Of a stretch of DNA of 64,000 nt, positions 26,522 to 51,818 are shown piece by piece; positions within the stretch are counted from its first letter, which is position 1, and each line of letters starts with the position of its first letter. The notes below the pieces were generated by a model. The model worked only from the letters and a program-made list of their open reading frames with translations. It did not search any database and was not told the DNA's origin. A program made the translations under genes and the position numbers. The DNA comes from Rickettsiales bacterium. Lineage in GTDB: Bacteria > Pseudomonadota > Alphaproteobacteria > Rickettsiales > UBA1997. Location of the stretch: positions 20,703 to 84,702 of the forward strand of contig JAGWYT010000002.1 of NCBI GenBank assembly GCA_018969185.1, read 5' to 3'.

Positions 26522-28555
26522 ATGAATAACTATTTTGTCAATGTGCTGCTGCCCTTGCCATTTGACAAGCCTTTTACATATAAAGCTGCGGATGAGAAAG
26601 TAGAAATTGGTAATTTGGTGAAAGTGCCTTTTCGTAAGAAAGATTTGTGGGGTTTGGTTGTTGAGAAAAACGTTAAACCTGAAGAGTCAGTTTCTTTAGA
26701 AAAAATCAAAGAAATTTCAGAAATAAATTCTCACGTAAAATTTGATAATAAATTAATTGAATTTATTGAAAAGATTGCGTCTTACAACCTTGGGCCTCGC
26801 GGACTTGTTTTAAAATCTTTCCTCGGAATTTTAAATTCAGATAAAATCAAAAAACCAAATTTTAAAGCGAAGAATCAAGAAATTAATTCATCTAAATTTT
26901 CTTTAAAAAAACTATCAGAAAAACAACAAAAAATCTCTAACAAAATTTGTGAAGAAATTTTTGAGAATAAACATGGAGTCCATCTTTTAGATGGTGTTAC
27001 GGGTTCTGGTAAAACTGAAGTTTATTTTAAAGTAATTGCGGAGATCCTGAAACAAGTTCAGGATGACACAATGCATTGTCATCTCGAGCGTAGAGAGAGA
27101 TCTCATGCAAACAATTCTCAAATCTTAATTCTTCTTCCAGAAATTGCACTAACCAGCCAATTACTATCACGTTTTGAAAAACAATTTGGTTTTAAACCTG
27201 CTTTGTGGCATTCAAAAATTACTACGAAAGAGAAGAGAGAAATTTTTTATGGTCTTGTTTTTGGGTCGCTAAAAGTCTTGATTGGTGCGCGTTCCGCACT
27301 ATTGCTCCCTTTTAAAAATTTACGATTAATTGTCATTGATGAAGAGCATGATAATTCTTTTAAACAAGAAGAAATTTTTAATTTTCAGGCAAGAAATATG
27401 GCGATTTTAAAAGCCAAAATTGAAAATTTTTCAGTAATTTTATCTTCAGCAACGCCATCGCTTGAGACCTACGTAAATGCTGCTTCGGGCAAATATAATC
27501 ATTTTATTTTAGATGAAAAATTTAATGAAAAAATAAGTGAAGTTCAAATTATTGATTTATGCCGTGAAAAATTACCAAGCGATGTTTTCATTTCTCATGA
27601 ATTAAAAAAAGCAATAATCAAAAATTTTGAAAATAAAGAGCAAAGCCTGCTGTTCCTTAATCGCCGAGGTTATGCACCAGTAACATTATGTAAAAATTGT
27701 GGACAGAAAGTTAATTGCAATAATTGCCATTCTTATTTGGTTGCTCATAAAAAAAATAACAAGTTGCTTTGTCACTATTGTGGTGAGAGTGAAAAATTTA
27801 ATGATAATTGTAAATTTTGTGGAACAGAAAATAGCCTTATAAATATTGGTGTTGGTGTTGAAAAAATAAAAGAAGAAGTAGAAAAACTTTTGCCAGAAGC
27901 AAGAGTGGCATTGGTTACAAGTGACTTAGTGACAAGCTTTACTGAAGCAGAAGAATTGGTTAATAAAATCACAAATCATGAAATTGATATAATTATTGGC
28001 ACGCAATTAATTGCTAAAGGCTATGATTTTCCTGAATTAACTTTGGTTGGAATTGTTGACGCGGATAGTGGTTTTTATTCTTCTGAATTGCGTTCTTTAG
28101 AAAGATCTTATCAGCTGCTAAGTCAAGTAATTGGCAGAGCGGGAAGAAGAGATAAGCAAGGTAAAATTTTTATTCAAACTTATAATCCGCAAAATTTTAT
28201 TTTTGAAAAAATTATTAAGCGGGATAAATCGGGTTTTTACGAATTTGAAGTTAATTCGCGTCAAAATGCTAATATGCCACCATTTAGTAAGATGGCCGCT
28301 TTCATAATCAGTTCTTTTGAAGAAAAAAATGCGGTTAATTTTGCAAAAAAACTGATCTCAAATTTTCCTTTTAATGATAGAATAGAAATTTTTGGCCCAG
28401 CACCAATGCCAATTTTACGCCTTAAAAATCGTTATTATTATCGTGTTTTTTTAAAAGTTGAAAAAAAGGTTAATTTGCAAAAATTAATTACTGATGTGAT
28501 GAAAACACTTGAAATTCCTAGTAATATAAGGATAAAAGTGGATGTGGATTTATGA
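26522..28555 (+). CDS. priA: Primosomal protein N' (replication restart helicase PriA), carrying an in-frame repeat-element insertion
   Basis: Walker A GVTGSGKTEVY, DEEH box, the Cys-rich zinc region (CKNCG...CNNC...CHYCG...CKFCG), and IGTQLIAKGYDFP. Confidence 0.92.
   Translation: MNNYFVNVLLPLPFDKPFTYKAADEKVEIGNLVKVPFRKKDLWGLVVEKNVKPEESVSLEKIKEISEINSHVKFDNKLIEFIEKIASYNLGPRGLVLKSFLGILNSDKIKKPNFKAKNQEINSSKFSLKKLSEKQQKISNKICEEIFENKHGVHLLDGVTGSGKTEVYFKVIAEILKQVQDDTMHCHLERRERSHANNSQILILLPEIALTSQLLSRFEKQFGFKPALWHSKITTKEKREIFYGLVFGSLKVLIGARSALLLPFKNLRLIVIDEEHDNSFKQEEIFNFQARNMAILKAKIENFSVILSSATPSLETYVNAASGKYNHFILDEKFNEKISEVQIIDLCREKLPSDVFISHELKKAIIKNFENKEQSLLFLNRRGYAPVTLCKNCGQKVNCNNCHSYLVAHKKNNKLLCHYCGESEKFNDNCKFCGTENSLINIGVGVEKIKEEVEKLLPEARVALVTSDLVTSFTEAEELVNKITNHEIDIIIGTQLIAKGYDFPELTLVGIVDADSGFYSSELRSLERSYQLLSQVIGRAGRRDKQGKIFIQTYNPQNFIFEKIIKRDKSGFYEFEVNSRQNANMPPFSKMAAFIISSFEEKNAVNFAKKLISNFPFNDRIEIFGPAPMPILRLKNRYYYRVFLKVEKKVNLQKLITDVMKTLEIPSNIRIKVDVDL
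27041..27104. repeat. Family A palindromic module inside the priA coding sequence
   Basis: The DNA is GAGATCCTGAAACAAGTTCAGGATGACACAATGCATTGTCATCTCGAGCGTAGAGAGAGATCTC. The module GTCATCTCGAGCGTAGAGAGAGATCTC matches intergenic copies such as 42831 and 30063. It encodes about KQVQDDTMHCHLERRERSH, between Walker A and the PEIALT block. Boundaries are approximate. Confidence 0.7.
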
Positions 28556-41264: not shown

Positions 41265-42363
41265 ATGAGCGCAGAGATCGAAAATTTATTTAGTCAAATT
41301 GCAAATTCCCTAGATTTAATTGCGAGGTGTCTTTGAGCCAGAGCGCCTAAAAACAAGGCTTGATGAGCTTAATAAAAAATCAGAAGATCCAAATTTGTGG
41401 AATGATAAAACAGAAGCGCAAAAATTATTAAAAGAAAAATCTGTGGTTGAAGAAAAATTGCAGCAATTTTTAATTGTTGAAAATTCTTTAAAAGATAATC
41501 GTGAATATTTTGAATTAGCCAAGGAAGAGAGTGATGCGCAGTTAATTTCTGATATTGAAAAAAAACTTACAGATCTAAAAATTTTTAGCGACAATTTAGA
41601 AATTGAAAGTCTATTTTCTGGTGAAAATGACATTAATGATTGCTTCATTGACATAAATGCTGGAGCGGGTGGAACTGATTCATGTGATTTTGCGCAAATG
41701 TTACTTCGTATGTATGATCGTTTTGCGCAGAGACATAAATTTAAAAGTGAAATCATTGATATTTTAGATGGCGAAGAAGCGGGAATAAAATCGGCCACAC
41801 TCAGAATTAGCGGTAAATTTGCTTTTGGTTGGTTAAGATCAGAAATTGGTGTGCATCGTTTAGTGAGAATTTCGCCATTTAACGCTAATGACAAAAGACA
41901 AACCAGCTTTGCGTCAATTTGGGTCTATCCACAAATTGAAGATGAAATTGAAATTGCAGTTGAGGAAAAAGATTTGCGTGTTGACACTTTTCGTGCTTCT
42001 GGCGCTGGTGGACAGCATGTTAATAAAACTGATTCTGCAGTTAGAATTACGCATTTACCAACTAATATTGTGGTGCAATGTCAGTCTGATCGTTCACAAT
42101 TAAGAAATCGCGTAACAGCGATGAATATGCTAAAATCAAAGCTTTATGAGCTTGAACTTCGAAAAAGAAAAGAAGCACAAGCGTCAAAAGAATCAGTAAA
42201 AACGGATAATAGTTGGGGTCATCAAATTCGCTCTTATGTCTTGCATCCTTACCAAATGGTGAAAGACTTAAGAACAGGTTTTGAAACTGGCAATACAACT
42301 GCTGTTTTAGATGGCGAGTTAGATGGTTTTATTAAGTCGGTTTTAACCCAAATAAAAGATTAA
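41265..42363 (+). CDS. prfB: Peptide chain release factor 2, requiring a programmed +1 frameshift (join 41265..41333, 41335..42363)
   Basis: Frame 0 reads MSAEIENLFSQIANSLDLIARCL and then TGA, in the context GAGGTGTCTTTGAG (SD-like element plus CTT TGA). The +1 frame continues EPERLKTRL... and contains the SPF and GGQ motifs. Confidence 0.93.
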
Positions 42364-43941: not shown

Positions 43942-45063
43942 ATGAAAAAACAATCTTTATTGCCAATTGGATTTTATGATTTGCTTTTTGATGAAGCAGA
44001 AAAAAATCACAGAAATATTAATAGCGCTATAGATCTATTTTTGAAGAATGGATATAGATTATTCAAGGCTCCTTTGGTTGAATTTGAAGATAATTTCTTG
44101 CAACAGAAATCACAAAATTATTTTCGTACAGTTGATGTTTTTTCAGGAAAAAATTTGGTTTTTAGAAATGATATTACGCCGCAAATTTCAAGAATTTTAA
44201 ATAGTCGTTTGCAAGAAGAAAAATTGCCGTTAAAACTTTGTTATGTTGGTGATGTGCTTTGCGCAAAGAATGATGAGCTTTACAAAGATAGACAACAAAC
44301 CCAAGTGGGAGTTGAGATTATTGGCTGCGATGAAGAAAAATCAAATTTTGAAATTATCAAAATTTTGCTTGAGGCGATTACAATATTAAACAAAGAAAAT
44401 CAGCAACAAAAATTATTAATTGAATTTTCATTGCCAAATTTTTTAGAAATTTTCTTAGATGAAAATGAATTTGAAAATAAAGCTGAATTAAAAGAAGCGA
44501 TAATTGAAAAAAATATTTCTACTGTAAAAAAATTATCAAAAAAGAATAGTGATTTGATCAATAAAATCATGCTTTCAAACCATGATCTAAAAGATTTAGA
44601 AAAAGATATTTTTTCTTTAACAAAATCAGAAAAAATTGCGGCGGAAATTAATCGCGCCAAAAAGATTTTAGATTTTTTTGCAAAGAATTCTAGGGCCTGT
44701 CATCAAATTACGAATGATAGTAATCAGCTTTTTGCTTCATCTTGCGGCTCTTCTGGCGCATCTGACTTCGGTAAAATTTCTTCAGATGGTTGCACATCTG
44801 AAGAAATTTATACCTCGTCATCTGGCCAGAATAGCTTGCAACCTAAAGCAAAAAATTTGACGACAGGCCCTAGAGAAATTAAAATTTGTTTTGATCTTTT
44901 TGGAGAACATAAAGATTCATATCATAAGGACATTGCTTTTGACGTTTTTTCTGGTGATTTATCTTATCCAATTGCACGTGGTGGCAGATATAAAATCAAT
45001 GTTGATGGCAAAGAAGTGAATAGCGTTGGTGCTACGATTTATATGAATTTGTTGCGGAAGTGA
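43942..45063 (+). CDS. HisZ-like class II aaRS paralog (ATP phosphoribosyltransferase regulatory subunit-like), carrying an in-frame 62-codon insertion
   Basis: LLPIGFYDLLFDEAEK, LFKAPLVEFED, FRNDITPQISR and QTQVGVEIIG resemble the HisZ/HisS core motifs. Confidence 0.6.
   Translation: MKKQSLLPIGFYDLLFDEAEKNHRNINSAIDLFLKNGYRLFKAPLVEFEDNFLQQKSQNYFRTVDVFSGKNLVFRNDITPQISRILNSRLQEEKLPLKLCYVGDVLCAKNDELYKDRQQTQVGVEIIGCDEEKSNFEIIKILLEAITILNKENQQQKLLIEFSLPNFLEIFLDENEFENKAELKEAIIEKNISTVKKLSKKNSDLINKIMLSNHDLKDLEKDIFSLTKSEKIAAEINRAKKILDFFAKNSRACHQITNDSNQLFASSCGSSGASDFGKISSDGCTSEEIYTSSSGQNSLQPKAKNLTTGPREIKICFDLFGEHKDSYHKDIAFDVFSGDLSYPIARGGRYKINVDGKEVNSVGATIYMNLLRK
44689..44874. repeat. 186-nt palindromic element inserted in frame in the hisZ-like gene
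   Basis: 21-nt inverted termini TCTAGGGCCTGTCATCAAATT and AATTTGACGACAGGCCCTAGA, plus an internal palindrome AAATTTCTTCAGATG-GTTGCA-CATCTGAAGAAATTT. The length is 62 codons. It encodes a Ser/Gly/Cys-rich segment. Confidence 0.75.
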
Positions 45064-48785: not shown

Positions 48786-51653
48786 ATGGAAGAAAAGTTT
48801 ATAAAAGTTGTTGGTGCGAAAGAGCATAATTTAAAAAATGTCAGCATTGAAATTCCAAAAAATCAATTAGTTGTGGTAACTGGATTAAGCGGGTCTGGTA
48901 AGTCTTCGCTAGTCTTTGATACAATTTATGCCGAAGGTCAAAGACGCTTTATTGAAAGTCTTTCTTCTTATGCGCGTCAATTTCTTGATATGCAAGATAA
49001 GCCTGATGTGGAATCAATTACTGGGCTTTCTCCTTCAATTGCAATTGATCAAAAAACCACTTCGCGTAATCCACGTTCAACTGTGGGAACGGTTACTGAA
49101 ATTTATGATCACTTCCGTCTTTTATTTGCAAGAATTGGTGTGCCTTATTCTCCCGCAACTGGCAAGCCAATTGAAAGCCAGTCAGCTTCTTTGATGGTTG
49201 ATAAAATTCTTGAATTGCCAAAAAAATCAAAAATTTATTTACTGGCGCCAATTGTTAGAGGACAAAAAGGTGAATATCGTAAAGAGATGATGTCGGCAAG
49301 AAAACAGGGCTTTCAGAGAATTAAAATTGATGGTAATATTTATGATTTAAATGAAATGTTACCAATTTTAGATAAGAATAAAAAGCATGATATTGAAATT
49401 GTAGTTGATCGTATTGTGGTTTCTGATGACCTTGGAAATAGGCTTGCAGACTCAGTTGAAACCGCTTTGAAAATTTCTGGTGGTTTGCTTTTAGTTGAAA
49501 TTGTTGGTCTTCCTGAAAAAACAAAATCAAAATTTAAGGAAGGTGAAATTATTACTTTTAGTGAAAAATTTTCTTGTCCAATTTCTGGGTTTACAATTTC
49601 TGAAATTGAGCCGCGTATCTTCTCTTTCAACAGTCCATATGGTGCGTGTAAATCTTGTGATGGTCTTGGAACAGAATTTTATTTTAGCGAAGATTTAGTT
49701 ATTGAAGATGAAAATCTTTCACTAAGACAAGGCGCAATTACAATTTGGCAAGGTATTCAAGCGCGCTTTTATCAACAAGTGATGCAGGCTTTATCGGAGA
49801 AATATAAATTCTCGCTTGATGTGCCTTTTAAAACTCTTTCTGAAGAAATCAAAAATATAATTTTTTATGGAACTGGCACTGAAGAAATTGAAATAAAATA
49901 TGAAGATGGTTTAAAATCATTCAAAGTGAAAAAGCCATTTGAAGGCGTAATTAATGGTCTCAAGAAGAAATTTTCGGAAAGCGAAAGTGAATGGATGAGA
50001 GAAGAATTAGTAAAATTCCAAACTCTTAAAACTTGTGAATGTTGTCAGGGATATAGATTAAATGAACAAAGTCTTTCAATTAAAATTGCTGGTTTGCACA
50101 TTGGCGAAGTAAGCAAAATGTCGGTTGAGAAGGCAAGAGAATGGTTCTTAAATTTAAATGATAAATTAAATTCAACTCATCAAAAAATTGCTGAAAGAGT
50201 TTTAAAAGAAATTAATCGTAGGCTGGGATTCTTGCAAAATGTTGGCTTGGAATATTTAACAATAAATCGTGAAGCGGGAACTCTTTCTGGTGGTGAAGCG
50301 CAAAGAATTCGTCTTGCTTCGCAAATTGGTTCAGGGCTTTCAGGTGTGATTTATGTTTTAGATGAACCTTCAATTGGTCTGCATCAATCAGATAATGATA
50401 AATTAATTTCAACTTTAAAAAATCTGCGTGATCTTGGTAATTCAGTAATTGTTGTTGAGCATGATGAAGAGATGATGCGTGAAGCAGATTACTTAATTGA
50501 CATTGGTCTTGGGGCTGGTGTTCATGGTGGTGAAGTGATTGCAGAAGGCTTGCCAAATGAAGTGATAAATAATAAGAAAAGTATTACTGGTCAGTATTTG
50601 AGTGGCAGAAAGAAAATTGAAATTCCGAAGCAGCGTCGCAAAATTGATAAGAAAAAAATGATTACGCTTAAAGGTGCAACGGTAAATAATCTAAAAAATT
50701 TGACGCTGAATTTACCTTTGAAAATGTTTGTTGCGGTGTCAGGGATTTCTGGTGGTGGTAAATCAAGTTTAATTATTAAAACTCTTTATCCAGCTTTAGA
50801 TAAAATTGTTAATAAGGCGAAGGCAATACCAGGGCCTTATGAAGCGCTTTCTGGATCTCATTTAATTGATAAAATAATTGAAATTGATCAATCACCAATT
50901 GGCAGAACGCCAAGGTCAAATCCTTGTACTTACATTGGTGCATTTACTTTCATTCGTGAATTTTATACAAATTTACCAGAATCAAAAACACGTGGTTACA
51001 AGGTTGGTAGATTCTCTTTTAACGTAAAAGGTGGACGTTGCGAGACTTGTCAGGGTGATGGTTTAATTAAAATTGAAATGCATTTCTTGCCTGACGTTTA
51101 TGTTAAATGCGAAACTTGTCATGGTAAGCGTTATAATCGTGAAACTTTGGAAATTAAATATAAGGATAAATCAATTTCTGATGTTTTAGAAATGACGTCA
51201 GAAGATGCTGCAGAGTTCTTCTCAAACATGCCACATATTTATGATAAATTTAAAGCATTATGTGATGTTGGTCTTGGCTATATGAGAATTGGGCAAAGTG
51301 CTACAACGCTTTCTGGCGGTGAAGCACAGAGAATTAAATTAGCAAGAGAGCTGAGCAGAAAAGCAACCGGAGATACGCTTTATATTCTTGATGAACCAAC
51401 AACAGGCTTGCATTTTGAAGATATTAGCAAGCTTTTAAAAGTGTTGCATAAATTGGTTGATAGCGGAAATAGCATTTTGGTTATTGAGCATAATCTTGAT
51501 GTTTTAAAAACTGCCGATCATATTATTGACATTGGACCTTATGGCGGTGAGAAAGGCGGATATATTGTGGCTGAAGGCACACCAGAAGAAATTTGCAAAG
51601 ATAAGAAATCGGTTACTGGGAAGTATTTGACTAAGGTTTTAAAACCTCTTTAA
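48786..51653 (+). CDS. uvrA: Excinuclease ABC subunit A
   Basis: Two ABC modules ([18 protein letters not shown]) and zinc fingers (CPISG...[14 protein letters not shown]...CETCHG). The likely start is the ATG at 48786. Confidence 0.96.
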
Positions 51654-51782
51654 AAGCCCTAACTTTTGCTTCAAACTGCTTAGTTATTTTGATTTTTTGT
51701 GTCCTCACGTATGTCGCAATAAGCTGCGGTACAAAAAATCAAAATGCCTCGCATTTTTTTGCAAAAGCGGGTTTTTAAAGAG
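51646..51782. repeat. Palindromic element (family B), overlapping the uvrA stop codon
   Basis: Arms CTCTTTAAAAGCCCTAACTTTTGC and GCAAAAGCGGGTTTTTAAAGAG. The core GTGTCCTCACGTATGTCGCAATAAGCTGCGGTAC is the reverse complement of the core at about 130-165. Confidence 0.7.
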
Positions 51783-51818
51783 TTTTGTATATGATCAGAT
51801 AAATAAAAATATTTTAAT

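Follow-up and report, generated by a model that had tools for sequence, protein, structure and literature searches.

An in-frame palindromic insert with IS5-type termini in a hisZ-like gene of a Rickettsiales bacterium

A palindromic segment within a HisZ-like gene

The DNA analyzed here is a stretch of 64,000 nucleotides (nt) from contig JAGWYT010000002.1 of a Rickettsiales bacterium (assembly GCA_018969185.1), to which we refer as the window; the feature under study is a palindromic insert in a hisZ-like gene at positions 43942-45063 of its forward strand. In our view, this insert is very probably a transposable element of the miniature inverted-repeat type (MITE) of the IS5 family that was mobilized in trans and is tolerated in a surface loop of the host protein. 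The product of the gene comprises 373 amino acids (aa), with a core resembling class II aminoacyl-tRNA synthetases and no anticodon-binding domain, as predicted from the open reading frame (ORF), PF13393, TIGR00443 and Foldseek. The Pfam domain tRNA-synt_His (PF13393) matches with 2.6e-48. According to NCBIfam, the closest model families are those of HisZ: TIGR00443 (hisZ) matches residues 13-252 with 6e-39 and 134 bits, which is under the equivalog cut-off of 271.65, and the other best-matching HisZ models, NF0089xx included, also score under their cut-offs. The gene is named HisZ-like here for this reason. An AlphaFold model, built with 62 homologs and confident in its host part, finds its top Foldseek matches in the HisZ chains of HisZG ATP phosphoribosyltransferases (5m8h, 8oy0 and 1z7m).

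Within this gene, the 186-nt segment 44689-44874 can be read without a stop in a single frame, that of the ORF, where it encodes a Ser/Gly-rich peptide. Its ends form arms of 21 nt (44689-44709 and 44854-44874) that are complementary at 95%, and a repeat search detects further nested arms as well as an inner palindrome of 15 nt with 100% complementarity (44774-44788 and 44795-44809). According to repeat search and fold, this central palindrome with its 6-nt loop (44774-44809) forms the tip of a hairpin. Folded as a single strand, the 186 nt yield one continuous hairpin of -89.8 kcal/mol, compared with a mean of -40 kcal/mol for shuffled sequences (z = -12.3; 0 of 200 shuffles equal). The 21-mer terminus occurs in only two places in the window, where shuffles lead one to expect 0 matches. 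The guanine-cytosine (GC) content of the segment is 42%, versus 28% in the remaining gene.

The initial annotation had described this feature as an element of 186 nt and 62 codons, bounded by 21-nt terminal inverted repeats with one mismatch, containing an internal palindrome, and lying in a hisZ-like gene; it had also pointed to a length that is a multiple of three and to a peptide unlike the rest of the protein. The terminal repeats and the internal palindrome are as described, and Pfam, the fold and NCBIfam (below the equivalog cut-off) agree on the nature of the host gene. The peptide stands apart in its content of Ser (23% vs 6% in the host protein) and Gly (10% vs 4%). The palindromic segment of 186 nt is real, but its extent as an element and the gain of 62 codons need to be revised: the gap in the orthologs and the flanking TA dinucleotides place the element proper at 178 nt (44693-44870), which together with a putative 2-nt TA duplication makes a net gain of 180 nt, i.e. 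60 codons. Divisibility by three holds for 186 and 180 nt alike. The element thus delimited (GGGCCTGTCATCAAATT...AATTTGACGACAGGCCC) is supported by the repeat search, the fold and the ortholog comparison (180 nt = 178 nt + TA). It is palindromic along all of its 178 nt, has no open frame other than that of the host, and contains no transposase gene. Its length lies within the limit for MITEs of under about 300-500 bp.

Comparison with orthologs reveals that the segment is peculiar to this gene. The insert is present in 0 of 74 aligned homologs (alignments of 14 and 62), and the query alone carries a block of 60 columns, which follows the conserved ...AKKI.DF.AKN(F) helix and precedes the ...EIKVCFDLFG strand. 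The best 120 of 408 homologs have 294-340 aa, most of them 301-320, vs 373 aa. The closest ortholog, P0002, has 313 aa, as does the host protein minus its insert; it is 91% identical over the aligned columns and lacks the segment. The junction was read codon by codon against P0002 at its locus L001, whose DNA is AAA AAT TTT CCT GAA ATT where the window has AAG AAT TCT AGG GCC ... GGC CCT AGA GAA ATT. Taking out 180 nt (TA and the 178 nt) leaves a gene of 942 nt that is colinear with the ortholog. Among orthologs, the loop that holds the insertion varies both in length and in sequence; P0003, for instance, has six additional residues at this place. Separately, an ortholog of another lineage, P0012 (337 aa; L125:2140-2270 / L126), carries a different in-frame insert in another loop (...MDSRLCGNDKGRSWNDKGGGRNDGG...); it consists of three tandem GGAATGACAAGGG-like units and is not a palindrome with the termini of the hisZ element.

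In the structural model, the insert lies between the helix 230-248 and the strand 313-318. Residues 253-257 and 259-309, i.e. the range 253-309 minus one residue, have a predicted local distance difference test score (pLDDT) below 50 and no secondary structure. The 60 extra residues probably form a Ser/Gly-rich, disordered surface loop.

Termini, target site and parent family

The left terminal inverted repeat (TAGGGCCTGTCATCAAATT) occupies 44691-44709 of the forward strand and the right one (TAGGGCCTGTCGTCAAATT) 44854-44872 of the reverse strand, the latter identified by the repeat search and by genome matches. An exact scan for TAGGGCCTGTCRTCAAATT in 185,579 species genomes retrieved at least 120 loci, against about 35 expected by chance (an estimate for uniform composition). 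Among the listed matches, the carriers are mostly Streptomyces; the others are Terracidiphilus, Granulicella, a metagenome-assembled genome (MAG) of Acidobacteriota, Limnothrix, Chloroflexota/Dehalococcoidia, Nitrospiraceae, Draconibacterium, Cyclobacteriaceae and Lysobacteraceae. Many of these matches are located 70-130 nt away from the end of a contig, a position typical of repeats. Many others pair up in inverted orientation over 55-312 bp, the most frequent sizes being 61-65 and 176-179 bp, and the short elements so bounded are palindromic throughout. Such TAGGGCCTGTCRTCAAATT-bounded MITEs number in the hundreds and occur in Streptomyces, Acidobacteriota, cyanobacteria, Chloroflexota and Bacteroidota.

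Two full-length elements possess the same terminus: one of 814 bp in a Nitrospiraceae MAG (L033:1247-2060) and one of 835 bp in a Terracidiphilus MAG (L121:3049-3883). Both contain a pair of overlapping ORFs (orfA and, in the -1 frame relative to it, orfB), whose products match NF033580 (IS5 family transposase) above its cut-off as well as the domains DUF4096 and DDE_Tnp_1. The terminus of the hisZ element is identical to the ends of these elements at 19 of 19 nt. For the IS427 group of the IS5 family, published descriptions give a length of 832-865 bp, direct repeats of 2 bp and ORFs that are frameshifted (PMC3281130). The two full-length elements, with their TA repeats, also fall within the wider limits for such a parent, namely an IS of 800-1000 bp with two overlapping ORFs linked by a frameshift and a direct repeat of 2-4 bp. 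The parent would accordingly be a member of the IS5 family, and the assignment to the IS427 group is suggested by size, ORF layout and repeat length.

A non-redundant set of 70 elements with the TAGGGCCTGTCRTCAAATT terminus was used to characterize the junctions. A C precedes the left TA in 65 of them and a G follows the right TA in 64, both being present in 62; from this pattern of C|TA...TA|G, we infer a CTAG target whose central TA is duplicated. The junctions of the window copy (ttC-TA-GGGCC...GGCCC-TA-Gag) carry the same signature. On its forward strand, the C with the left TA copy (44690-44692) would constitute the left half of such a target, and the right TA copy with its G (44871-44873) the right half. 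The net gain of 178 + 2 = 180 nt matches the gap of 60 residues in the protein alignment exactly.

The initial annotation had proposed a mobile palindromic element, and had named two findings that would instead speak for a lineage-specific domain, namely orthologs sharing the segment and termini lacking other copies in the genome. As to the first, none of the 74 aligned homologs contains the segment, the closest one (91%) included. As to the second, the 19-nt end recurs in insertion sequences (ISs) of the IS5 family and in MITEs of several phyla. The proposal of a mobile element in frame in a hisZ-like gene is thus upheld by the segment-free orthologs and by the IS5-type termini.

In Streptomyces (L003-L122, e.g. 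L021:4319-4495 and L017:3900-3964), the MITE family that occupies CTAG sites and has TAGGGCCTGTCGTCAAATTCCCGTC as its terminus is very abundant: one assembly can contain dozens of copies, which are often located at the end of a contig. The 19-nt terminus also appears once each in two IMG/VR viral contigs, L123:5283-5301 (44% GC) and L124:12892-12910 (60% GC), in both of which no second end was found within 1.5 kb. These termini could mark an IS or a MITE that is carried as cargo by phage or prophage DNA. No Rfam family matches the hisZ element, and a full-text literature search for the terminus string retrieved no paper.

Insertion, maintenance and alternative explanations

We envisage the following course of events. 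A transposase supplied in trans would have recognized the terminal repeats of about 19 nt, and the element would have been inserted at a CTAG in the hisZ-like gene, presumably with duplication of the central TA. The gain of 180 nt would have left a full-length HisZ-like protein with 60 extra residues, the downstream frame being kept because 178 + 2 is a multiple of three. The site would correspond to the loop that connects the final helix of the helical insertion domain to the beta-strand leading to the conserved GGRY region. Today, the element would be an immobile, fixed passenger, that is, selfish DNA that is tolerated and has no domain function of its own.

The reading frame imposes a further constraint on such an insertion. 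In one frame, the terminal repeats contain a TAG stop, and in a second one TTT-GAC is read as ..T TGA C.., again a stop. The sole open frame of the terminal repeats is the one used here, in which xCT AGG GCC TGT CAT CAA ATT ... AAT TTG ACG ACA GGC CCT AGx encodes SRACHQI...NLTTGPR. Terminal peptides of the SRACHQI/NLTTGPR type are also found in spurious ORFs across the IS ends at L033 and L121. In the opposite orientation, the present interior would contain three stops, and only 5% of composition-matched shuffled interiors are without a stop. Because the sole open frame is used and the interior is free of stops, the observed copy is what a filter for frame and stop codons would let through.

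Public metagenomes show how widely the insertion is distributed. A 31-mer index detects the gene in some 20 metagenome runs, which are labelled freshwater, estuary or 'soil' or carry no label, and the element in essentially the same runs. Contigs that span a junction of element and gene were obtained from 12 public runs of 9 studies dating from 2017-2025 (X1, X2, X3, X4, X7, X8, X9, X10, X12, X20, X25 and X28). Two more runs, X13 and X26, gave contigs that are located on the element and reach at most 3 nt past it (X13 at the left flank only), and a candidate RNA run of uncertain type contains the left junction only. Within the element, strain variants carry three substitutions (44694 G>A, 44699 G>A and 44785 G>A), of which two are non-synonymous; the left terminal repeat is eroded by two of the three. 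These variants fit an immobile relic under relaxed constraint, their number being small. In addition, short contigs of X1 and X2 contain diverged copies of the centre of the element (44757-44835), 82-91% identical, of which one has another end, ...CTGGAGGCTGTTCC, and different flanks. In a diverged copy of X1, 44788 G>A and 44795 C>T have changed together and so keep the pairing. Relatives of the hisZ MITE exist in the X1 and X2 communities.

A strain from another public run (L002) differs from the window gene by 6 substitutions, all of them synonymous and located at 44073-44139, while its element is identical. The six differences fall within 67 nt, a clustering that resembles a short recombination tract.

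For an insert of this kind, several other explanations have to be weighed. A lineage-specific protein domain or an assembly chimera might be suspected, as the segment is present in a single copy in the window and has a GC content unlike that of the gene. We reject this explanation, to which we would assign practically no probability: the closest ortholog lacks the segment, the segment forms a nearly perfect palindrome at the DNA level and has the termini of a transposon, and both junctions are covered by independent contigs of many runs and by locus L002. More serious, yet still improbable, is an inactivation of the protein by the insertion, leaving a young pseudogene that still looks intact. 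A disordered insert of 60 residues in the core of an enzyme regulator could disrupt folding or the interface with HisG, and the gene scores under the NCBIfam equivalog cut-offs. The low score, however, is common to the insert-free ortholog family and is not an effect of the insert, the match covering residues 13-252. There is also neither a stop nor a frameshift in the 373 codons, so that the gene appears otherwise intact, and all 57 family-invariant columns (62 members) are kept, including the stretches RQ.TQ.G.E..G and GG.Y. Compared with the L001 ortholog, and with the element removed, the ratio of non-synonymous to synonymous substitution rates (dN/dS) is 0.09 overall (dS 0.56) and 0.024 downstream of the insert, values that sum the whole divergence and not just the time since the insertion. 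Taken together with the purely synonymous differences of strain L002, this suggests that the host gene is under purifying selection, and it looks functional.

Two further explanations accept a repeat in a working gene and assign it another origin or role. Rickettsia palindromic elements (RPEs; Ogata et al. 2000, 2002) are protein-coding palindromes that spread by an unknown mechanism and bear no relation to ISs. An element of this type would suit an AT-rich alphaproteobacterial host whose HisZ relatives are labelled as MAGs of Pelagibacterales or Rickettsiales, and RPEs are likewise palindromes of 100-200 bp that lie in frame in housekeeping genes (PMC2229807, PMC10969869). Against it stand the 19-nt termini, which match without a difference the ends of an IS5-family element that encodes a transposase, and the CTAG/TA junctions of the same family; RPEs are described as having 105-146 bp, a target duplication that is not established, and terminal inverted repeats of about 12 bp (PMC2229807). 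Each RPE family, moreover, encodes a recurring peptide, whereas the hisZ peptide has no relatives in 5.8 billion proteins. We therefore regard an RPE-type repeat as very improbable. The same low probability applies to co-option of the insert, be it as a functional disordered loop of HisZ (e.g. in allosteric control of HisG) or as an mRNA hairpin with a regulatory effect on translation or stability. It is true that the insertion is fixed in all populations sampled, over 8 years and at many sites, and that the mRNA hairpin would be very stable. A neutral insert is nevertheless expected to become fixed in a clonal lineage, and the peptide has neither a homolog nor a predicted structure, just as the element has no Rfam match. 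In addition, two of three variants within the element are non-synonymous and two erode the terminal repeat, whereas the host part varies at synonymous positions only.

The insertion of a trans-mobilized IS5-family MITE, which remains the explanation we prefer with considerable confidence, has to face a number of observations that weigh against it. An empty allele was found in none of 16 public runs, whose contigs are short and whose coverage is 2-6x, and no contig skips the element. The sequence TCTAGA implied before the insertion differs from TTTCCT (L001) and TTTTCT (L125) at 4 of 6 positions, and the TA duplication is for this reason deduced by analogy and was not observed as such. Multicopy status, the usual hallmark of MITEs, rests only on the short diverged copies of the centre in X1 and X2. 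Within the 64-kb window, no second copy was found with the 21-mer at up to 3 mismatches, blastn-short or nhmmer, and no IS5-family transposase was detected by tblastn with an IS transposase, either in the window or in an overlapping contig of 10.7 kb. The interior is without similarity to other MITE interiors among 120 fetched loci; two scans of metagenome contigs, one for the central palindrome and one for the right end together with its subterminal bases, returned 0 matches. A six-frame query of 5.8 billion proteins for related peptides returned the host protein only. Lastly, purifying selection is measured over a divergence that includes the time before the insertion.

Relation to known elements and further inserts in the window

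The closest known counterparts are the MITEs of the IS5/IS427 group, whose autonomous relatives are IS1248, ISPaes1 and ISPpa6 of Paracoccus (PMC3281130). They share with the hisZ element the 2-bp TA flanking repeat, the palindromic structure, the small size and the absence of coding capacity for a transposase, as well as the 19-nt terminus of the ISs of 814-835 bp. Compared with the recovered MITEs of the same terminus, the interior of the hisZ element is unrelated, and its host has 33% GC while most carriers are GC-rich. The Streptomyces family agrees in the terminal 19 nt, the CTAG/TA junction, the full palindrome and the length (176-179 bp vs 178 bp); it differs in its GC-rich, unrelated interior and in its very high abundance within single genomes. 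For its main size class, the net gain is 175-177 nt (a span of 177 bp giving 175), which is mostly not a multiple of three.

RPEs resemble the hisZ element in that they are palindromes of 100-200 bp inserted, with the frame kept, into conserved housekeeping genes of an AT-rich alphaproteobacterium; in both cases, the added peptide lies outside the core of the protein, and the host protein apparently stays functional. They are unlike it in having no identified parent transposon, terminal inverted repeats of about 12 bp, an uncertain target duplication and recurring peptide families; judged from the published descriptions, the hisZ element is set apart by a clear IS parent family, a terminal repeat of 19-21 nt and the CTAG/TA junction, and no further copy of it in frame is on record. 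The Correia/NEMIS elements of Neisseria and QMITE1/2 of Coxiella burnetii are also MITEs with long stem-loops, terminal inverted repeats of 23-29 bp and, for Correia, TA at the termini, and they are sometimes fused in frame to ORFs (PMC2229807, PMC5896051). Unlike the hisZ element, they possess other termini and parent families, and they are high-copy and mostly intergenic. In general, in-frame fusion of intragenic MITEs with host ORFs is not unusual, RPEs being the extreme case, and the RPE-bearing enzyme Gmk is translated and active (reviewed in PMC10969869, PMC2229807 and PMC5896051). In-frame insertion of a MITE is, as an event type, already known; what the present case offers is a parent transposon family that can be named. 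It is among the few single-step routes to a long new loop in a bacterial protein, and here the parent family, the CTAG target, the TA duplication and the survival of the frame can all be read from the sequence in one clean worked example, as opposed to RPEs without a known parent. For annotation, it serves as a warning that the extra 60 residues are transposon DNA and not a HisZ domain. Beyond these two aspects, we would regard it as an ordinary relic of selfish DNA.

The window contains further inserts. A second in-frame palindromic element of 144 nt (17620-17763) is present in nadC (minus strand, 17465-18490; site 17617-17766). Its ends are GAACCTGTTCAAAATCTC and GAGATTTTGAATAGGTTC, with TTA on both sides, so that 144 + 3 = 147 nt correspond to 49 codons, and it folds with -76 kcal/mol. 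An alignment of NadC to PDB 3l0g omits query residues 243-288, and the QRPTase_C domain is split into two stretches. The ends of the nadC element are similar to the termini of the IS5 family. The IS1031 and ISL2 groups typically produce a TNA duplication of 3 bp. In hisZ (TA at CTAG) and nadC (TTA) alike, the summed length of the element and its duplication is exactly divisible by three. Another two palindromic elements, each of about 146 nt (78-224 and 51642-51786), have related ends (TAGATCTCTTTTAAAACTC... and AAACCTCTTTAAAAGCCC...) and share a central CTCACGTAT-like motif. The former adjoins the start of grpE and overlaps its first codon; the latter overlaps the last 12 nt of uvrA and extends into the spacer before ispA.

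Because inserts recur, namely in the nadC element, the insert of P0012 and the elements of about 146 nt, one may ask whether this freshwater, AT-rich alphaproteobacterium displays an RPE-like phenomenon with nameable parents outside Rickettsia, with at least two different IS5-type MITEs in frame in 64 kb (hisZ and nadC). We consider this doubtful at present. If it were true genome-wide, it would provide protein-coding palindromes with a concrete origin, i.e. IS5-type transposition followed by a filter for frame and stop codons. The identity of the terminus at 19 of 19 nt over at least 7 phyla would in that case suggest that one IS lineage has recently spread between phyla.

The neighbours of the hisZ-like gene are nrdR, a family-4 uracil-DNA glycosylase and bamA, and no his genes are found among the 47 large ORFs of the window. 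In priA, the stretch 27041-27140 looks foreign (QVQDDTMHCHLERRERSH) and its DNA is partly a hairpin, so it may represent another small repeat insert. The ORF of prfB (41320-42363) starts at an internal TTG and has no upstream part in the same frame, as expected if a programmed +1 frameshift site lies just upstream.

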